Part shown: piece after piece, positions 2,222-14,823 of the stretch
Layout: every line of letters begins with the position of its first letter
Position numbering within the stretch: the first letter of the stretch is position 1
Source: Candidatus Hermodarchaeota archaeon
GTDB taxonomy: Archaea; Asgardarchaeota; Lokiarchaeia; Sigyniarchaeales; SOKP01
Reading direction: 5' to 3'
NCBI GenBank assembly: GCA_048885765.1
Contig: JBHLLI010000003.1
Coordinates: 2,565-66,564, forward strand
Length of the DNA: 64,000 nt
The notes under the pieces: generated by a model
Told to the model about the DNA's origin: nothing
Seen by the model: the letters and a program-made list of their open reading frames with translations, nothing else
Databases searched by the model: none
Made by a program: the position numbers and the translations under genes

Positions 2222-3148
2222 ATGAATGAGCAATATCGCACTTTTTTGAAAAATAATAAAATCGATGAAAATACCCTCCCTCAAACAATTTGTTGTGATA
2301 ATCCGTTCATAGAATCACGCGATGGAAATAAAGTATGTTTAAATTGCGGGATAATATTTGAAAGGACATTTGTGGGTAATGAGCGACGAGCATATACCAT
2401 AGAAGAGATACAGAACCGGCGAAGGACCGAACCACGGTGGCGGGACTTTGGTCCAAGAACTATGCTCCCTTCAACTAAAACTGATAGTAAAGGTAAAAGT
2501 ATTGGTGCTAAAGAACAAGCTCTTTTTTCTCGTCTTTCAAAAATTCAAAACTCATTAATTTCTAGTATTGAAAGAAACTTTTGGGAAGCAAAACCAAAGT
2601 TAAAAATGCTTACCTCAAAACTCAATGTACCTGAATATATAGCAGAAACTGCTTGGAAGATATATAGCTTAGTAGCAAAAAAGAAATTAACAATGGGTAG
2701 GTCTATTAATGGATTTATTTCCGGATCGCTTTATGCAGCTATTCGTGTGCATGATTTTCCAAGACTTCTAGATGAAATTTGTGAAGCCTCCCTCACTCCA
2801 AGGAGGACAGTCCATAGAAGCCTAGCGATGATAATCCGTGAAGTATTACCTGAACTTAAATTAAGATATCAGCCAATCACAGCTGAAAGCCTTGTATTTC
2901 GTTTTGGAAATGAATTAGACTTACCGATATCAATACAAAAAAATGCTATAAATATGTTGAAAGATGCTTCAAAAAATGGCTTAAAAAGAACTGGAAAAGA
3001 TCCAAAAGGTTTAGCTGCTGCATGTATTTATATTGCAGCAAAAAACGGAGCGATTCGAAAAACTCAGTCTAAGGTCGCTGATGTTGCGAAGATTACTGAG
3101 GTTACATTGAGAAGTCGTGCCAAACAGATAAAAAGTAAACTAATTTAG
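2222..3148 (+). CDS. tfb: Transcription initiation factor IIB (TFB) family
   Basis: Zn ribbon (CC...CLNCG), ERRAY B-reader-like motif, two cyclin repeats, GKDPKGLAAACIY and TQSKVADVAKITEVTLR. Confidence 0.93.
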   Translation: MNEQYRTFLKNNKIDENTLPQTICCDNPFIESRDGNKVCLNCGIIFERTFVGNERRAYTIEEIQNRRRTEPRWRDFGPRTMLPSTKTDSKGKSIGAKEQALFSRLSKIQNSLISSIERNFWEAKPKLKMLTSKLNVPEYIAETAWKIYSLVAKKKLTMGRSINGFISGSLYAAIRVHDFPRLLDEICEASLTPRRTVHRSLAMIIREVLPELKLRYQPITAESLVFRFGNELDLPISIQKNAINMLKDASKNGLKRTGKDPKGLAAACIYIAAKNGAIRKTQSKVADVAKITEVTLRSRAKQIKSKLI

Positions 3149-4260: not shown

Positions 4261-4830
4261 TTATTCTTTTTTTTCAGCTTCTTCTTGTTGTAGAGACCAT
4301 TTTATACCAACTGCGGTAATACATAATCCAAGAATTAGGAAAAATGTATTTACAGATTGAAAGAAGATCCAAAACAAAGCTGTAGCATAAGAGGTGATAG
4401 TTGGGCTATAAAGAGCAGATTGAAATCGAATAGTGGTAAATTGTGTAGTAATATTTGTTTTTCCTAATAATACAAAAAAATCCATTTTAACAAAAGCAGC
4501 TAACAGACCAACCATTCCGATGATAATTATAAGCTTAGATAAGGGAGTACTTTCAATATTCTTTTTTGAGGAGATTCTAAACATGAAAAACCCTAATATT
4601 AAGAAACAAACCATCGAAATAATTAAAAATAACCATAATAATGTTCCTGAAAATGGAAATATTGTCGAGGAATAAACAAATTCGGCTAATAATATAGTAT
4701 TTCCATCTAGGATAAACGGAGTGAAATTCAGTAATACAATATATCCTAATTCGACTAACGAAATAATAATAAATATAGAACCTACAATTTCAAGAAAATT
4801 AAGAATTTTTTCATATATCATAATTAACAC
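4261..4830 (-). CDS. Hypothetical membrane protein (about 4 TM)
   Basis: Four hydrophobic segments; fills the space between neighbouring genes. Confidence 0.7.
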   Translation of the reverse strand: MLIMIYEKILNFLEIVGSIFIIISLVELGYIVLLNFTPFILDGNTILLAEFVYSSTIFPFSGTLLWLFLIISMVCFLILGFFMFRISSKKNIESTPLSKLIIIIGMVGLLAAFVKMDFFVLLGKTNITTQFTTIRFQSALYSPTITSYATALFWIFFQSVNTFFLILGLCITAVGIKWSLQQEEAEKKE

Positions 4831-4971: not shown

Positions 4972-5937
4972 TTGAAAAAAACGAAAAGAACTGAGTCGGA
5001 GATTTCTAAGTGTTCCCATAAAAATGTCAAACAAGATAGTGGTTTTATTGTATGTCAAGATTGCGGATTGATCATGGAAGAAAATGTGGCATTTGAAAAT
5101 TCCGTGTCAACTAGTGAATATTTTAATGATACACAAAGAGATTACGAGCGAAGAATTAGGATAAGTGATTCAAAAGCTCTCCAAGATCCTATTATAAAGG
5201 AGAAATATGAAAGGATCAAAACTCTTGAAAAATGGTTTAGAGATTATGAATCTGATTTTACAGAACAAAAAAAGACTATAGAACTACTGAAGAGCCATAG
5301 AATTGGTTTAAACATTGATAACGTGAAATACAAAGAAATTAAAGACAGATATCTTAAATACAATAAGTATCATCGTCATAATTATCAAAACATGGTAATA
5401 ATTTTTCTTGCGATTGTATGGATGGAAATAAAGGATACTACAAATATTAGATTAGAACAATTCATTAATGTTTCAAGTCAATTAGGACACAAAATCAATA
5501 AAAAGATGTTAAACAATGCGATGCTAAAAATTAAACGGACTGAAAAGATCTTTAAGGAAAAAAAAGGTATTAAGGAATTAGAAAAAGAAATTAAGGATAA
5601 AATCAAAATTGTCTTTCAAAAAGATATAAATAATATTCCATTCAACAAAGTTCAAGAGCATTTCAAAAACCAAGTAGAATTTGAAAAAGTCAAAATTGAA
5701 ATGCAACTATTAGTTGATAAAATATTAAACAAAATAACTTATAGTCAGATCCAAAGTTCCAATTATAAGGCTTTTACTGCGGGATTAATTTATTATGTTG
5801 GACAGACTCTTGATAATAGAAAAATCTTTACTCAAAGTTTAGTAGAAAGTACTAGTAGATTTTCAAGTACTACCATTAGAAAGAAATATCACGTTCTAAA
5901 AGAGATATTGGGAAATCCCCAAAATCTTAATCTCTGA
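4972..5937 (+). CDS. Divergent TFB/TFIIB-like protein (Zn ribbon plus cyclin-fold repeats)
   Basis: CSH...VCQDCG Zn ribbon. C-terminal FTAGLIYY...FTQSLVESTSRFSSTTIRKKY parallels the TFB recognition helix. Confidence 0.7.
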   Translation: MKKTKRTESEISKCSHKNVKQDSGFIVCQDCGLIMEENVAFENSVSTSEYFNDTQRDYERRIRISDSKALQDPIIKEKYERIKTLEKWFRDYESDFTEQKKTIELLKSHRIGLNIDNVKYKEIKDRYLKYNKYHRHNYQNMVIIFLAIVWMEIKDTTNIRLEQFINVSSQLGHKINKKMLNNAMLKIKRTEKIFKEKKGIKELEKEIKDKIKIVFQKDINNIPFNKVQEHFKNQVEFEKVKIEMQLLVDKILNKITYSQIQSSNYKAFTAGLIYYVGQTLDNRKIFTQSLVESTSRFSSTTIRKKYHVLKEILGNPQNLNL

Positions 5938-5992: not shown

Positions 5993-8872
5993 ATGTCATT
6001 ATCTCTTAAACAAAATGAAGTTAATTATTATAATCAACCAATAGAGGAAATTCTAAAGGATTTAAATACAAATATTGAAACTGGATTAAATTCCTCTGAA
6101 TTGAGTGAGCGGTATCAGATTGCAGGTTATAATGAATTACCAAAAATTAAAAAATCTATCTGGAGGATATATCTTGCTCCAATTTTTAATTTTTTGATTG
6201 TAATTCTCTTAGTTTCTAGTGTCATAATTGTAATATTAGGTTCTCCTGGTGAAACAGTTATCACATTTACAGTTGTAATAATTAACTCAATTACTGCTAT
6301 AATTCAACAACACCGTGCTCAGAAGGCCTTAGAATCTTTAAGAGAGATATCTGCTTTAAAGTCAACTGTTTTAAGAGATGGAAAGCGGATTGAAATCAGT
6401 ACAAAAGATATTGTTCCAGGAGATATAGTTATTTTAAATCAAGGAGATAAAATCCCTGCTGATGGTAGAATAATAGAGTTTACGAATTTTAGTGTTGATG
6501 AGGCGCCCCTAACTGGAGAAAGTGAACCCGTTGAAAAAGATAGTTCTATTTTAGAAAGTGTAAATATACCTCTTCAAAATCAATCTAATATGGTATTTAT
6601 GGGAACATTTGTACGAACGGGTAAAGCCAAAGAATTAGTAACGGGAACAGGCATAAAAACAGAAATTGGTAAAATCTCTCAGACTCTAAATGAAATGGGT
6701 AGTATTGAAGATATTCCTTTAACAAGAAAACTGAATCATTTAGGACATATACTTGGAATTCTTGTATTAATCAATCTTGTCATTTTGTTAGGATCTAAAC
6801 TCATAATACTAGCAATTCAAGGAAATTTGTTTCAAAATTTTATTATTGAGGCGATTACGGATTCAGTAATAAGATCAATGAACATTGTGCCTATAAATCT
6901 TCCATTGCTTTCCACATTAGTTCTTATTACAGGCGTTTTAACCATGGCTCATAGTGGAGTTATAATTAAAAATTTATCAGCAATCGAATCTTTAGGGCGA
7001 GTTTCAGTAATTTGTTCAGATAAGACAGGGACAATTACTAAAAATGAGATGACCGTTGAAAAATTTTGGATAAATGAACAAGAATATGAGGTTACTGGAT
7101 CTGGATACAATGCTGATGGGCAAATTTTCGAAAATCATACACCAATAGACTTAAGTTCCAATGCAACATTTATGAAATTCCTTAATTCTATTGTAATAAA
7201 TAATAATGCGATTTTAGAATTTGAAGATGTTAGGGTTAAGTTAAAAGATGTTAAAGAAAAAGCGATAAGAAGAGCTATAGGATCACCCACAGAAGCAGCT
7301 TTGTTAGTACTGACTGAAAAAGCCGGCTTGTATACTTATGACATTGAAAAACAATTTACAAAGTTTGAGGAATTTTCTTTCAGTTCAGAAGAAAAAATAA
7401 TGACAACTATAAGTAAGAATAAAAGAGATAATGATGAAGTTTTAGCATTTTCAAAAGGCGCACCTGAAAAAGTTCTCTCACTATCTTCACAAATTGAGAT
7501 TAACGGGGAATTGAAAGATTTAGATTTACTTTATAAGAATTCAATTCTTGAAATGATCAATAAGCATGCAGAACAAGGATTTAGGACATTAGGAATTGCT
7601 TATCGAATACTAAATAAAATAAATGGATTAAAGAGAGAGGAGGTTGAAAAAGACTTAATTTTTCTTGGTTTTGTGTCTATTATGGATCCTCCACGTCCAG
7701 GTGTTAAAAAAGCTGTTGAAGAGTGCCAAAAAGGAGGTATAAAAGTAGTTATGGTGACTGGAGATCATCCTGCAACAGCAAAAACCATTGCTTCACAAAT
7801 GGGTATTTTTAAAGAAGGAGATATAGTGACAATGGGAAATCAAATAGAAAATAAACCCTTAAAAGAATTTAATAATACATCGGTGTTTGCTAGAGTTGAA
7901 CCTAATGATAAAGAAATAATAGTGGAAAATTATCAAAAACAAGGATTTATATGTGCTATGACAGGTGATGGGATCAATGATGCCCCCGCTCTGAAGTTAG
8001 CAAACGCAGGAGTTGCGATGGGTATTACGGGAACTGATTTAGCTAAAGAAACTTCTGATATGGTAATTACCGATGATAATTTTTCTTCAATCAAGCAAGG
8101 TGTTAAGACTGGACGGGGAATCTTTGCTAAAATAAGGACCATTATATTCTTTTTTATATGTACCAATATTGTTGAAGGAATCGTCTTTTTCACTTTCGAA
8201 TTTTTGGAACCTTTCACTGGATTCGAACTTTTTGCATCAAATTGGCAACACATTTACATTTTTGGTATAGTTCATTCTCTTCCTTCTTTAGCACTAGTAA
8301 TTGATACACCTCCGAAAGATATAATGAACGAACCGCCCAGAGATGAAGAGCAACTTTTAAATAAGAATTTATGGATTATGTTATTAATTCAAACTTTTCT
8401 ATTTGGATTAGGATTAATATTAGCACTCCAATTAACGTTAGGTGAGATAATTCCCTTAAATCAATGGAATTTGAATCCAAATTTAAGTTATCTCGTGCCA
8501 TTTAGTACTCATTCTGAGTTAGTAGCGGGGAAAGCCAGAACTATGTTTATCACAACAATATTCATCGTAGAAGCTAATTTTATCTGGACCTTTAGGAGAC
8601 CAAATAAATCTCTCTATAGAACGTTTAAAGAAGAATTAAGTTATTCCCTATTGGTAGTATGTTTATTTACCATGGCGTTACATGTATTATATATTTTATT
8701 CTCCTATGCGGTTAATCATTATGTCAATGTCGAATTTGGATTAAATTTACAGATAAATTTCATGTTTCTAAGTGGAACAGATTGGCTAATATGCATTTTG
8801 CTCGCATTACCGGGGTTTGTAGGCGTTGAAATATTTAAATATTATGCGCGAAAAAGAAAAATACATTTTTAA
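5993..8872 (+). CDS. P-type ATPase, P2A-like scaffold with atypical transport site
   Basis: LTGES, CSDKTGT, KGAPE, MDPPR, TGDH, TGDGINDAPAL; about 10 TM; M4 reads VPINLP instead of PEGLP. Confidence 0.95.
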   Translation: MSLSLKQNEVNYYNQPIEEILKDLNTNIETGLNSSELSERYQIAGYNELPKIKKSIWRIYLAPIFNFLIVILLVSSVIIVILGSPGETVITFTVVIINSITAIIQQHRAQKALESLREISALKSTVLRDGKRIEISTKDIVPGDIVILNQGDKIPADGRIIEFTNFSVDEAPLTGESEPVEKDSSILESVNIPLQNQSNMVFMGTFVRTGKAKELVTGTGIKTEIGKISQTLNEMGSIEDIPLTRKLNHLGHILGILVLINLVILLGSKLIILAIQGNLFQNFIIEAITDSVIRSMNIVPINLPLLSTLVLITGVLTMAHSGVIIKNLSAIESLGRVSVICSDKTGTITKNEMTVEKFWINEQEYEVTGSGYNADGQIFENHTPIDLSSNATFMKFLNSIVINNNAILEFEDVRVKLKDVKEKAIRRAIGSPTEAALLVLTEKAGLYTYDIEKQFTKFEEFSFSSEEKIMTTISKNKRDNDEVLAFSKGAPEKVLSLSSQIEINGELKDLDLLYKNSILEMINKHAEQGFRTLGIAYRILNKINGLKREEVEKDLIFLGFVSIMDPPRPGVKKAVEECQKGGIKVVMVTGDHPATAKTIASQMGIFKEGDIVTMGNQIENKPLKEFNNTSVFARVEPNDKEIIVENYQKQGFICAMTGDGINDAPALKLANAGVAMGITGTDLAKETSDMVITDDNFSSIKQGVKTGRGIFAKIRTIIFFFICTNIVEGIVFFTFEFLEPFTGFELFASNWQHIYIFGIVHSLPSLALVIDTPPKDIMNEPPRDEEQLLNKNLWIMLLIQTFLFGLGLILALQLTLGEIIPLNQWNLNPNLSYLVPFSTHSELVAGKARTMFITTIFIVEANFIWTFRRPNKSLYRTFKEELSYSLLVVCLFTMALHVLYILFSYAVNHYVNVEFGLNLQINFMFLSGTDWLICILLALPGFVGVEIFKYYARKRKIHF

Positions 8873-8996
8873 TTTCCCTTAAATAGAAATATCTAATTTT
8901 TTAAATCATGATTATTATAGGTTATTTATTATATTGATAAGAATTTTGAATTCGATTATTTTTTAATTTTATACTAAAAATTGTGGAAGAACCACT

Positions 8997-11894
8997 ATGG
9001 AATCTACAGAAAAAAATTATTATAATCTTGAATTAGACCAAATTTACAAAGATCTTCAAGCGAATCCTGAAAAAGGACTAAGTGAAAAAGAAGCTAGAAC
9101 AAGGCAACAAAAATATGGTTATAATGAAATACCAAAAGTATCTAAAGGATTTGTCAAAATATATCTTGCTCCCTTATTTAATTGGTTAATTGTAATTTAT
9201 CTAATTGGATCTGTGATTTTATTTTTAGCAGCCGTATTTGGAGGAGAGGGATCTCTAATGTTTATTGGTTTGACATTAGGGATAGTCTTTTTGAATTGTC
9301 TTGTTGCTATTATTCAACAATATAGAGCAACAAAAAAGCTTAAAGCATTACGTGAATTAACTGCTCCTACTTCTACTATAATTAGGGATGGTCAAAAGCA
9401 AGAAATCCCTACAAAAGAAATTGTAGTTGGAGATTTATTAGTTTTAAATCAGGGTGATAAGATACCCGCTGATTCTCGAATAATTGACTCTTATAATATG
9501 GTTGTAAATGAAGCTTCATTGACGGGAGAGTCTGAACCAGTAAGAAAATTAGAAAAAGGTATAGCTCTACAAAAGAAAGACATATCGATCGGAGAACGAA
9601 GTAATATGGTGTTTTATGGAACTTTTATAAGTACAGGAAATGGGAAAGCAATTGTAGTAAAAATAGGGGGTGATACCGAAATTGGTAAAATTTCTCATGG
9701 ATTAGAAGAAGCTGGTACAAGCGAGATTCCAATACGACAGAAAATGAATCATTTTGGAAAGTGGTTAGGATTAACAATTTTTATCTTTTGGTTTATAACA
9801 GTTATGATTATTTTTGTTGCAAGTGCCTTTACTAGGTTTGATATTGTAGGAAGTATGAATTCTGCTTTAGATCTTATGCCTCTTAACATTCCGCTACTAT
9901 CAACTATTATTTTGATTACAGGAGTTTTAGCTATGGCACGCCATGGTGTTATTATACGAAATCTTGCCTCTGTTGATAGTCTAGGGCGAGTAAGTGTGGT
10001 TTGTTCGGATAAGACTGGCACTTTAACGAAAAATCAGATGTCAATACAGCATGTCTGGACAAATGGTTCTATTTTTAGAGTAACTGGAAGCGGTTATACA
10101 CCTGAGGGTGATATTATTCTCATGGATAATCCAAAAAATCCTGCTTATGTTAAACACATCAATGAATACAAATACCTGAAGTTATTATTAACTGCGGGTT
10201 TCTTAAATAACAATTCCGCACTAATTAAAAATGAAATAGAGGTTGCGGGCAAGATTATTCCTAAATGGGACGTTGTTGGTTCTCCTACAGAAGGAGCTCT
10301 AATGGTTTTATTTCAGAAAGGTATGGGTGATTATCTTCTTGATGATTTTGAAGCAATTACTGAATATCCTTTTGATTCGTCTGTAAAGAGAATGACTAAA
10401 CTTTATAAACGAGAATTGGAATATTATTCATTCACTAAAGGTGCAAGTGAAGTATTAATCCCCCTATGTACTAAAATAATATATAATGATGCAGAAATTG
10501 AATTTACTCAAGAAATTAAAGATAAAATATTAGAAATTGCAAATATATACGCAAATCAAGGTTATAGAATATTAAGTTTATGTTATAAAGTAATGGATAT
10601 TATACCCCCCGAAGGAGATGAAGGAAGAAAAGTAAGCGAATCTGATATGATCTACATTGGTTTTGTAACTATTCTAGATCCTCCAAGAGAAGGAGTTAAA
10701 GAATCTGTAAAGCAATGCCATGAAGCAGGAGTAGATGTTGTAATGATCACAGGAGATTCTCCTGCTACTGCCCACGCAATTGCATCTCAAATTGACATTA
10801 TAACTGACGATAATGAAACAGTTAAAGAGGGTAGAATGGTAAAAGATATTGAAAGTTTTGAAGAATTCAATTCAACTAAAGTATTTGCGAGAGTTTCACC
10901 AGAACATAAAGAAGATATTGTTGAAAAATATCAAGAAGAAAGAAAAGTGGTTGCTATGACGGGAGATGGTGTAAACGATGCTTTAGCACTAAATATGGCT
11001 GATGTTGGAATTGCTATGGGTATAACAGGTACTGATGTCGCTAAAGAAGCCTCTGATATGGTTATATCTGACGATTCATTTAATTCAATTGTTACTGGTA
11101 TTCATCAAGGAAGAGGAATATTTGCTAGAATCCGTGCTATGGTTTTCTTTTATATCTGTATTAATATATTTGAAGGTCTAGTGCAATTCATATTGTTTGT
11201 AATATTAGAATTACCTTATTTCCTAAACACAGAATTTTACCTTCAATGGATATTTCTCACTATAACAGTTCATACTTTTCCAGGATTAATTCTTACTTTT
11301 GACACTACTTCTAAAGATGTAATGAAAGAAAAGCCACGTGATTCTGAAGAAATACTTTCTAAAAATACATTTATTCTATTGTTTGTTTTTGGAATTTTGC
11401 TTTCAGTAAGCATGGTATTGGTTTATTTCATAACTTTCAGTGGATTATATCCTGTTTTTCCGGAAAACCTAGTTCCCGGATACCTCTATTATGATGGTAG
11501 TTTCCTACCAACAGAAATTGATGGGATGCCAGTAACCTTACCACAACTTCAAGTTATTGGCAAAACACTAACAATGTTAATGTGTACTCTTTTTATATGT
11601 GAATCCATGCTTGTATTTCAAATAAGACGACCAAATAAATCATTAATTAAGAGTCTAATTGAAGATCGGAATAAGTTTATGTTTATCCTAATCGGCTTTG
11701 TATTTTTCATTTTTATATCAGTTTTATATATACCTGGTGTTCAAATTTTCTTAGCACAAGAATTAGGGATCAATTTTATGTTTATGTATTTAACTGGAAT
11801 TGATTGGTTAGTGTGTTTCTTAATTTCTTTAATCTGCATCGCAGGTTTTGAAATTGTCAAATTTATCACCCGTAAGATGGATATTAAATTCTAA
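8997..11894 (+). CDS. P-type ATPase, tandem paralogue, P2A-like scaffold with atypical transport site
   Basis: LTGES, CSDKTGT, KGASE, LDPPR, TGDS, TGDGVNDALAL; M4 reads MPLNIP. Confidence 0.95.
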   Translation: MESTEKNYYNLELDQIYKDLQANPEKGLSEKEARTRQQKYGYNEIPKVSKGFVKIYLAPLFNWLIVIYLIGSVILFLAAVFGGEGSLMFIGLTLGIVFLNCLVAIIQQYRATKKLKALRELTAPTSTIIRDGQKQEIPTKEIVVGDLLVLNQGDKIPADSRIIDSYNMVVNEASLTGESEPVRKLEKGIALQKKDISIGERSNMVFYGTFISTGNGKAIVVKIGGDTEIGKISHGLEEAGTSEIPIRQKMNHFGKWLGLTIFIFWFITVMIIFVASAFTRFDIVGSMNSALDLMPLNIPLLSTIILITGVLAMARHGVIIRNLASVDSLGRVSVVCSDKTGTLTKNQMSIQHVWTNGSIFRVTGSGYTPEGDIILMDNPKNPAYVKHINEYKYLKLLLTAGFLNNNSALIKNEIEVAGKIIPKWDVVGSPTEGALMVLFQKGMGDYLLDDFEAITEYPFDSSVKRMTKLYKRELEYYSFTKGASEVLIPLCTKIIYNDAEIEFTQEIKDKILEIANIYANQGYRILSLCYKVMDIIPPEGDEGRKVSESDMIYIGFVTILDPPREGVKESVKQCHEAGVDVVMITGDSPATAHAIASQIDIITDDNETVKEGRMVKDIESFEEFNSTKVFARVSPEHKEDIVEKYQEERKVVAMTGDGVNDALALNMADVGIAMGITGTDVAKEASDMVISDDSFNSIVTGIHQGRGIFARIRAMVFFYICINIFEGLVQFILFVILELPYFLNTEFYLQWIFLTITVHTFPGLILTFDTTSKDVMKEKPRDSEEILSKNTFILLFVFGILLSVSMVLVYFITFSGLYPVFPENLVPGYLYYDGSFLPTEIDGMPVTLPQLQVIGKTLTMLMCTLFICESMLVFQIRRPNKSLIKSLIEDRNKFMFILIGFVFFIFISVLYIPGVQIFLAQELGINFMFMYLTGIDWLVCFLISLICIAGFEIVKFITRKMDIKF

Positions 11895-13692: not shown

Positions 13693-14823
13693 ATGGATAT
13701 TAGTGATGTTAAAATCGGTACCGAAGGAAGTTTTATTGGTCCTTTTGAAGACGGGATAGCCCAAGTAAAGAGAATAGAAGAGAATGGGTATGATTCAGTT
13801 TGGTTTGCAGACCATATAATGGGTTGGACCCCAGAAAGCATATGGACTCCTGATATTATTAGAGCTGCTGAATTTATACATAGCCCCCACATATTTCATG
13901 AAGTTTATTCTGTCATGGCAGTAGCAGCTTGGAATACTAATAGAATTAAATTAGGAACAAGTGTCACCGAAACTTTTCGAAGGCATCCTGCTGTTTTAGC
14001 CCAAACTTTATTGTCTCAAGATCATATCTCTAAAGGGAGGGCAATTCTAGGTATAGGAACGGGAGAGGGTGAGAATGTAATACCTTATGGAATTAAATGG
14101 GAAGACCCTGTAGGTAGATTAGAAGAATCTCTAAAAATTATTAGGTTGTTATGGGAAAGCGAAGAAAAAGTGAATTTTGAGGGAAAATATTGGAAATTAA
14201 AAAACGCAGTTCTCTCTCTAAGACCGTATAAAAAAAGAAAATATCCTCCAATTTGGATCGCTGCACATGGACCTAAAATGCTTGATTTAACTGGAAGATT
14301 GGGTGATGGTTGGCTTCCAGCTTATTCTGATCCTGCAGCATATAAATATAAACTTGACCAAATTAAAAAATCAGCTAAAAAAGCAGATAGAGATCCTGAG
14401 AAAATTGTTCCCGCACTTTTTAGTTATCTTTTAATTGATGAAGAACATAATGTTTGCGATGATATGCTTGAACATCCTGTAATAAAAAACCAATTTTTAA
14501 CAATGCCTCCTGCCATGTATAAAAATTATGATGCAATTCATCCTTTTGGTGAAGACTTTTATGGATTACTTAAATACATTCCCTCTGAATATGATAAAGA
14601 TACTATATTGAAAGCAATAAATAAAATCCCAACAAAAATGTGTGATGATAATACTCTGCATGGAACTCCTGATGATGTTATTAGCAGAATTGAAGAATAT
14701 GCCAAAGTAGGTTTAAAACATATTGCAATTTATAATGTAACATATTTAGCAGATGTTACTAAAATTAAAAGTTCATTTGGTTTGATGAAAAAAGTATTAC
14801 AATATTTCCACGATGAGAAATAG
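13693..14823 (+). CDS. LLM-class flavin/F420-dependent oxidoreductase
   Basis: WFADH, HPAVLAQ...DHISKGRAILGIGTGE, AAHGPK, GDGW. Divergent from its paralogue. Confidence 0.9.
   Translation: MDISDVKIGTEGSFIGPFEDGIAQVKRIEENGYDSVWFADHIMGWTPESIWTPDIIRAAEFIHSPHIFHEVYSVMAVAAWNTNRIKLGTSVTETFRRHPAVLAQTLLSQDHISKGRAILGIGTGEGENVIPYGIKWEDPVGRLEESLKIIRLLWESEEKVNFEGKYWKLKNAVLSLRPYKKRKYPPIWIAAHGPKMLDLTGRLGDGWLPAYSDPAAYKYKLDQIKKSAKKADRDPEKIVPALFSYLLIDEEHNVCDDMLEHPVIKNQFLTMPPAMYKNYDAIHPFGEDFYGLLKYIPSEYDKDTILKAINKIPTKMCDDNTLHGTPDDVISRIEEYAKVGLKHIAIYNVTYLADVTKIKSSFGLMKKVLQYFHDEK

Follow-up and report, generated by a model that had tools for sequence, protein, structure and literature searches.

Two adjacent genes in a 64,000-nucleotide stretch of Candidatus Hermodarchaeota archaeon DNA (assembly GCA_048885765.1, contig JBHLLI010000003.1; this whole stretch is the window to which the coordinates of the pair refer) encode P-type ATPases that appear to represent a well-delimited, Asgard-centred family, derived from P2 pumps and carrying a rebuilt ion-binding site. 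The P2 scaffold itself was already known; the family with its altered site is what seems to be new here. We tentatively propose that this clade pumps a single cation other than Ca2+ through a site rebuilt from two Glu, a His and an Asn, with a monovalent ion slightly favoured, a statement that, taken whole, we regard as plausible rather than probable.

The first gene, ORF1 (5993–8872, + strand), encodes 959 amino acids and gives its name to the ORF1-type paralogue; the second, ORF2 (8997–11894, + strand), encodes 965 amino acids, and the two products are 42% identical across their full length. An AT-rich spacer of 124 bp (8873–8996, assigned to no strand) separates them. Both products belong to the P-type ATPase superfamily, scoring 283 and 281.8 bits on TIGR01494, whose cut-off is 62.3, and share the Pfam domains E1-E2_ATPase, Hydrolase, Cation_ATPase, Cation_ATPase_N and Cation_ATPase_C. 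A first-pass annotation, made from the letters of the window and its open reading frames (ORFs), had described the catalytic motifs of both as intact, and the translations contain all of them: TGES (residue 174 in ORF1, 176 in ORF2), the phosphorylation motif DKTGT (D343 in ORF1, 7019–7033, +; D338 in ORF2, 10008–10022, +), KGAPE/KGASE, DPPR, TGD and GDGIND/GDGVND. Judged by these motifs, each of the two proteins is a P-type ATPase competent for catalysis.

It is in the membrane ligands that the pair departs from ordinary pumps. We aligned 32 family representatives with 101 ordinary PEGL-type relatives using MAFFT and, as a second route to residue equivalences, aligned ORF1 by HMMER to the solved Listeria Ca2+-ATPase (LMCA1); no SERCA sequence is included, and the SERCA residue numbers transferred through these alignments are those we take to be the standard ones. 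Against the Listeria enzyme, PEAL stands opposite PINL and FINLVNDSLP opposite YIFGIVHSLP. In transmembrane segment M4, ORF1 thus reads PINLP (P300–P304; 6890–6904, +), with I301 aligned to SERCA E309 and N302 to G310, and ORF2 reads PLNIP (P295–P299; 9879–9893, +). In M6, ORF1 reads IVHSLP (8267–8284, +), with H761 at the D800 position, and ORF2 reads TVHTFP (11265–11282, +), with His at the same place. The M4 and M6 strings had been quoted in the first-pass annotation together with their SERCA equivalences; translation returns the strings at the same coordinates, and both alignments reproduce the equivalences.

The survey of these motifs that the annotation had suggested reveals the same pattern across the family. 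The E309 position is hydrophobic in all 32 representatives (22 Ile, 3 Val, 3 Phe, 2 Leu and 2 Trp), against Glu in 100 of 101 ordinary pumps, and the G310 position is Asn in 29 of 32, against Gly in 88 of 101. Where ordinary pumps have Asn at the N796 position (93/101), family members have Tyr (10), Phe (8) or other residues; the T799 position is variable in the family and Thr in 89 of the ordinary pumps; and the D800 position is His in 31 of 32 representatives, whereas the ordinary pumps have Asp in 89 cases and His in none. On the cytoplasmic entry side, the Glu of the M2 'QE' motif is replaced by Gln (27/32, against Glu in 95/101), seen in ORF1 as Q106 within QQHRA at the cytoplasmic end of M2 (6305–6319, +), and an M1 Gln by Pro (28/32, against Gln in 91/101). 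Other ligands are retained, as the annotation had noted of the M5 NxxE motif and the M8 Glu: the N768 position is Asn in 28 of 32 family members and 92 of 101 ordinary pumps, the E771 position in M5 is Glu in 32 of 32 and 94 of 101, and the E908 position in M8 is Glu in 30 of 32, the ordinary pumps having Gln in 53 cases and Glu in 41. ORF1 keeps these residues as N725 and E728 in NIVEG of M5 (8165–8179, +) and as E860 in VEAN of M8 (8567–8578, +); the ORF2 counterparts are NIFEG and CESM.

Within the membrane core, conservation of acidic residues across the family is limited to E728 and E860, and no acidic replacement for the lost ligands is conserved in M4 or M6 across its members. Because the M4 and M6 pattern is conserved throughout, it is not a matter of chance: within these alignments, the altered site is confirmed as a fixed family character and not a chance variant. 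The annotation had inferred that these are not Ca2+ pumps, and the removal of site II across the family, with no other conserved acid in M4 or M6, supports this as far as ordinary two-site Ca2+ pumps are concerned; on residue grounds we think it probable that neither protein is a classical Ca2+ pump.

The family can be separated cleanly from its relatives. An exhaustive HMMER search with ORF2 against 1.84 billion representatives returned about 35 clusters (at 50% identity) aligning over the full length, with PEGL-type pumps ranked below them and aligned only to about residue 811. Members and PEGL-type pumps were sorted by motif, and a profile built from 32 members (A1) gives full-length members at least 1038 bits and PEGL-type pumps at most about 892. 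When whole genomes were searched, the two ORFs scored 1274.6 and 1290.3 bits (1151 and 1166 on loci incomplete at one end), and both show the features by which we define the clade: an A1 score of at least about 1000 bits, a Pro-hydrophobic-Asn M4, the M6 His and the M5 and M8 Glu. Since ordinary pumps reach about 890 bits on this profile, a first survey of the phylum at E ≤ 1e-100 (286 of 301 genomes) was dropped as a family count and the threshold raised to E ≤ 1e-285. Back-translated family patterns, searched against genome contigs, proved too generic; the 80 loci listed were all ordinary PEGL pumps and served only as outgroups.

At the stricter threshold, and with two candidates scored per genome, the family is present in 202 of the 301 genomes sampled from the window's phylum, in 69 of the 90 of high quality and in 51 of 70 genera. 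These fall in 13 of the 30 taxonomic families that we coded; from the other 17 it is absent at this threshold (for example f29, 0/11; f22, 0/7; f21, 0/6). Outside the phylum there were no matches at 1e-285 in two samples that overlap and come from a single DPANN-type phylum (0/201 and 0/151), in the phylum of a Methanobacterium genome (0/151) or in five single genomes (0/5), an outgroup sample that lacks Thermoproteota/Korarchaeia and Thermoplasmatota. All 37 organism-named homologues among the 120 matches listed are Asgard (Promethearchaeota, Loki-, Thor-, Odin-, Hermod- and Hodarchaeota, to which cluster look-ups add Helarchaeota), source names that accord with the Asgard origin proposed in the annotation. 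A single member is labelled 'Korarchaeota' (P0131); judged by neighbour names only, that label is at odds with its surroundings, 26 of its 27 organism-named neighbours being Asgard. In the Atlas, the ORF's own cluster is mostly Promethearchaeota and the adjoining clusters are generic P2. On this sampling, the clade is nearly confined to Asgard archaea.

In both a FastTree phylogeny (96 rows) and a quick IQ-TREE run under LG+G4 (51 rows), the family forms one clade with support of 100 and a stem of 0.36–0.43. The trees cover prokaryotic P2 pumps, profile scores standing in for eukaryotic P2B, P2C, P2D, P3A, P4 and P5 references and for CtpE. From this combination of motifs, profile and phylogeny, a distinct P2-derived clade of active pumps is very probable. 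A literature search found no description of the clade or of its motif strings; the older TCDB catalogue lay outside that search, and a bare prior listing is possible.

Profiles, domains and fold all place the pair among P2 pumps. For 32 of 32 members the best NCBIfam profiles are the PMR1-type and SERCA-type ones, followed by ENA, PMCA and Na,K, and the closest solved relatives by HMMER are LMCA1, SPCA1 and SERCA. With these P2A enzymes the family also shares its domain set, the catalytic motifs, the M5 Asn and Glu and, as in SERCA, the M8 Glu. It differs at the ligands, both ORFs having Ile or Leu for the M4 Glu, Phe or Thr for the M6 Asn and His for the M6 Asp, and the family replacing the M2 Glu by Gln. 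The two ORFs score below every subtype-specific (equivalog) cut-off: 460.4 (ORF1) and 420.2 (ORF2) bits on TIGR01116 (P2A; cut-off 703.4), 476.6 and 473.8 on TIGR01522 (P2A; 798.3), 352.8 and 338.3 on TIGR01647 (P3A; 615.5, where a true archaeal P3A pump at locus L029 scores 919.7) and 245.5 and 234.8 on TIGR01657 (P5; 618.25). Taken alone the P2A cut-off is a weak test, because an ordinary PEGL pump from the same genome (L002, its locus cut at the 3' end) also falls below it, at 615.4. The P2A profile matches stop near residue 800, and M7–M10 therefore differ from P2A. An AlphaFold2 model of ORF1 computed on the family alignment (pLDDT 83.1, pTM 0.75) gave 50 listed Foldseek matches, every one to a P2 structure (SERCA1a, 2a and 2b, SPCA1, Na,K- and H,K-ATPases, and LMCA1), the best with a TM score of 0.76 and in E2-type states; no P4 or P5 structure was among them.

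These results bear on the reading offered by the first-pass annotation, that the pair may be lipid flippases or transporters of another substrate, perhaps an Asgard intermediate or parallel between P2A and P4. Spelled out, this would be a P4- or P5-like pump of a lipid or of another bulky or organic substrate, with a hydrophobic M4 gate and the His as a built-in charge where other pumps have a transported ion. P4 flippases carry DGET in the A domain, a Lys in M5 and PISL in M4. The resemblance that prompted the idea is real: as in P4, Ile follows the M4 Pro and the acidic M4 and M6 ion ligands are lost, the E309 position being hydrophobic in 32 of 32 members; ORF1 reads N-x-x-P-I-x-L; the entry funnel is neutral; and His partly occupies the canonical sites. 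In two genomes belonging to one genus, a gene for a YhhN-family (lysoplasmalogenase-type) membrane protein lies upstream of the single-copy ATPase gene (L095, 7128–7829, directly upstream; L096, one gene away), and it is the sole lipid-related neighbour that we noticed. Beyond this the likeness fails. On the P4 profile TIGR01652 (cut-off 431.25) the ORFs reach 115.5 and 96.5 bits, with a best E-value over the 32 members of 1.9e-43; their Pfam matches are to Cation_ATPase_N and Cation_ATPase_C, with no PhoLip_ATPase_N or PhoLip_ATPase_C among them; and the ranking of folds speaks for P2. As the annotation had itself listed among the points against a true P4 pump, both ORFs have TGES and an M5 Asn and Glu with no Lys. 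Their M4 (PINL, PLNI) shares only the Ile or Leu with the P4 motif. No CDC50-like partner, of which the annotation had seen no sign either, was found in the neighbourhoods or in the 87%-complete genome, the genome search with PF03381 having had no positive control (14 control genomes were also without a match). Nor does the P5 signature fit: M4 reads VPINLP or MPLNIP, in which just one Pro precedes the variable residue, where P5 has PPxLP and P5B pumps read PPALP (PMC10654040, in the passage cited).

By profiles, Pfam domains and modelled fold, ORF1 and ORF2 are P2-type, not P4. Neither an affinity to P4 nor an intermediate position is supported by these data, and no eukaryotic descendant or link to P4 or P5 is visible in the profiles, fold and prokaryotic trees examined. 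The flippase reading is further not supported because Na+-pumping ENA and H+-pumping P3A enzymes also lack the M4 Glu, as do the P5B pumps with their PPALP, and the two buried Glu of M5 and M8, conserved in the family, point to a cation. We think a lipid or organic cargo of this kind quite improbable, and that the cargo is a cation rather than a lipid we hold with fair assurance from the residues kept.

The closest precedents for a P2-like pump with such a membrane core lie outside the classical Ca2+ pumps. The ENA profile (P2D, TIGR01523, for Na/K efflux pumps of fungal type) is the only one to align end to end (residues 12–954 to positions 7–991 of 997), and ENA pumps likewise have an M4 without Glu and keep the TM5 Glu and Asn. 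In the published account of NcENA1 and its relatives, as far as it is cited here, TM4 carries a conserved IPAS instead of PEGL, site II is formed by backbone carbonyls, the modelled site I of NcENA1 includes a His, the TM5 Glu and Asn are essential, and the pumps are known from fungi, mosses and protozoa (PMC10779151). P3A H+-ATPases resemble the family in the hydrophobic residue after the M4 Pro (PVAQP in the pump at L029, 3146–5221) and in a single protonatable centre in M6, and differ from it in having there an Asp (in keeping with the AHA2 passage of PMC10654040) together with an M5 Arg; in both trees the P3A row sits on a long branch outside the family. The P6 (CtpE) pumps, described in the same review as prokaryotic, P2-like and bacterial, keep PEGL, have Ile for the TM6 Asp and import Ca2+ (PMC10654040, P6 passage). 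Both families lack the TM6 Asp; set apart by description, P6 keeps PEGL with the Ile, whereas the present family has lost PEGL and has His. P6 is in this sense a precedent for functional pumps without the TM6 Asp and with altered transport, as that passage describes them (PMC10654040).

Beside the archaeal P3A gene just mentioned, on a Methanobacterium sp. contig (L029), lies a P2C-like pump (100–2886; M4 VPEGLLPTVT; TIGR01106, 646 bits, below cut-off). This adjoining pair fits a remark in the review that methanogens possess pumps of both the Na,K-ATPase-like and the P3A type, whose role is unknown (PMC10654040).

In sum, the alignments show a clade whose canonical site II is abolished, Ile, Leu, Val, Phe or Trp standing for the M4 Glu and aromatic or hydrophobic side chains for the M6 Asn. 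His has taken the place of the Asp by which the two Ca2+ sites are bridged, and a neutral Gln that of the M2 entry Glu. Both carboxylates of site I (M5 and M8 Glu) persist along with the M5 Asn, and a nearly invariant new Asn occupies the unwound part of M4. On the reading we favour, one cation per cycle might then be held in a pocket of the M5 Asn and Glu, the M8 Glu, the M6 His and the M4 Asn, and moved by the ordinary E1–E1P–E2P–E2 cycle. The transport could be Na+-type efflux, as in ENA (P2D), or it could concern H+, the M6 His serving as proton carrier or as built-in counter-charge. With pocket carboxylates reduced from four to two, the site suits one monovalent or one divalent ion. A monovalent ion is favoured by the end-to-end ENA alignment, the Glu-less M4 of ENA, the near-universal distribution and the His counter-ion of P1B-4, the last described in a P1B-4 pump in the passage cited (PMC10654040); near-universal, strongly conserved presence also suits a housekeeping ion pump. 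A specifically monovalent cargo nonetheless remains a conjecture, to which the residues incline us without making it probable.

Several points weigh against this proposal. That N302, H761, E728 and E860 lie close together is presumed from their homology to the residues of site I in SERCA. A His with two carboxylates is more typical of Mn2+, Fe2+, Zn2+, Co2+ or Ni2+ than of Na+, and a hydrophobic gate residue with a neutral entry funnel would suit a substrate without charge as a mere ion just as well, that is, a non-ionic one. On the ENA profile the ORFs reach 392.5 and 399.7 bits, below both its cut-off of 645.05 and their own P2A scores. The sister group gives no help either, FastTree placing the family weakly (94) near a P2C-like clade with the Methanobacterium pump and IQ-TREE leaving it in a basal polytomy. 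At the loci examined, no neighbour conserved across coded families was found that might hint at function. Finally, ENA keeps an essential TM6 Asp, D860 in the account cited (PMC10779151), and the family has His at the bridging position.

The main alternative is a transition-metal pump, exporting or importing Mn2+, Fe2+, Zn2+, Co2+ or Ni2+, with the His, Glu and Asn as direct ligands of a single site. The ligand set is conserved to a degree that would suit it (His 31/32, Glu 32/32 and 30/32, Asn 29/32 and 28/32), two carboxylates would balance one divalent ion, and the P1B-4 metal pump has a His in its membrane site (PMC10654040, in the passage cited). The loss of entry acids (M2 Glu to Gln) is compatible with uptake from outside, and homologues come from sediment metagenomes. 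Yet two P1B metal pumps of CPC type are already encoded in the same genome, the family has neither Cys or Met ligands nor a metal-binding domain, no metal-related neighbours were found at the loci examined, and near-universal strong conservation would be odd for a metal-detoxification pump; we judge this alternative unlikely, if worth keeping in view. The two P1B pumps are among three further P-type ATPases of the genome, on contigs C25, C91 and C124 (loci L001–L003); the third is the ordinary PEGL/Asp P2 pump L002, and a classical Ca2+ pump is therefore already present.

That last gene also counts against a second cation reading, in which the family would pump an alkaline-earth ion (Ca2+, Mg2+ or Mn2+) on the retained site-I ligands only. 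SPCA, PMCA and LMCA1 are single-site Ca2+ pumps that use site II only, so such a pump would be their reverse. The equivalents of N768, E771 and E908 are kept, and the best profile and structure matches are to Ca2+ pumps. D800, a ligand of both Ca2+ ions in SERCA, is nevertheless His in 31 of 32 members, the T799 position is not conserved, and the E309 and M2 entry-path Glu are gone. The CtpE 'P6' pumps do move Ca2+ despite a TM6 Asp-to-Ile change, according to the review passage (PMC10654040), and we still consider an alkaline-earth cargo improbable. Of comparably low likelihood is an innovation common to most Asgard lineages, a pump that would have given up carrying a simple hard cation by way of the canonical sites and in which the hydrophobic M4 gate and a built-in His/Glu charge pair would serve an archaeal membrane lipid, an organic or polyamine cation, or import; were a non-classical substrate of this sort to prove true, the family would be a prokaryotic functional parallel to eukaryotic P4 and P5 pumps, independently arisen. 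Set beside these alternatives, a single non-Ca2+ cation carried by the rebuilt site is the reading we prefer.

Each of the two trees puts ORF1 and ORF2 in separate subclades of the family, and their duplication is therefore old. Among the 150 places listed, two copies no more than 3 kb apart on one contig occur in 30 genomes, all of the coded family to which the window belongs (f1), and three further f1 genomes have two copies on different contigs; most other coded families have a single copy. Thirteen single copies that we fetched are 41–45% identical to ORF2 and 36–41% to ORF1.

Upstream of the pair, the window encodes a TFIIB/TFB protein (2222–3148, +), a 189-residue multi-pass membrane protein with no Pfam match (4261–4830, −) and a 321-residue protein (4972–5937, +). 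The first two are kept upstream in related loci. The third is also found upstream of the pair, on the same strand, in five related loci (directly in L099, L100, L101 and L103, a few genes off in L102); its TFIIB zinc-ribbon match is weak (19.7 bits, below cut-off), and it could be a TFB-like regulator. In the window's coded family a GNAT acetyltransferase gene follows the pair. In f9, another coded family, the single-copy ATPase gene stands between that of a subtilase and, in four of eight loci, that of a UFM1-E3-ligase-like protein, after which comes PanB. With no neighbour common to the families, nothing at these loci points to a dedicated subunit or pathway.

Some observations at these loci stand apart from the pumps. 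Beyond the pair and the GNAT gene lie two divergent luciferase-like monooxygenase genes (PF00296; 12526–13608, −, and 13693–14823, +), and the same two are present in L101. The UFM1-ligase-like protein of f9 (about 660 residues; PF09743, 41.6 bits; L090, 10825–12810, and the same place in L091, L092 and L097) is encoded directly downstream of the ATPase; as a eukaryote-like ufmylation component in Asgard genomes, it may deserve separate study. In the outgroup material, a 1.5-Mb genome labelled 'uncultured Methanosarcinales archaeon' (L016, genome G301) is grouped by taxonomy in the phylum of a Nanoarchaeota genome, in conflict with its label.

Proteins of this family are named in databases as 'Ca2+-transporting ATPase' or 'cation-translocating P-type ATPase'. 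In the part cited here, a published inventory of transporters in Asgard archaea read a putative Ca2+-ATPase, common to five of the proteomes, as favouring Ca2+ signalling (PMC7997004); that protein may or may not belong to the present family. If we have read the residues of the clade rightly, Ca2+ biology inferred from annotation alone would be unsafe, and the substrate of one of the most strongly conserved primary pumps of archaea labelled Loki, Thor, Hel, Hermod, Hod and Odin would be in question. Palmgren's 2023 review, in the passages cited, introduces P6 (CtpE) as a prokaryotic family new to the classification and anticipates that others will follow, with no mention there of Asgard archaea (PMC10654040); the present clade, if the reading is true, would be a well-delimited prokaryotic P-type family of the kind expected. 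Its arrangement, which lacks site II but retains the carboxylates of site I and bridges with a His, would be the reverse of that in known single-site Ca2+ pumps, and it raises the question of what a P2 scaffold can bind with two Glu, a His and an Asn.

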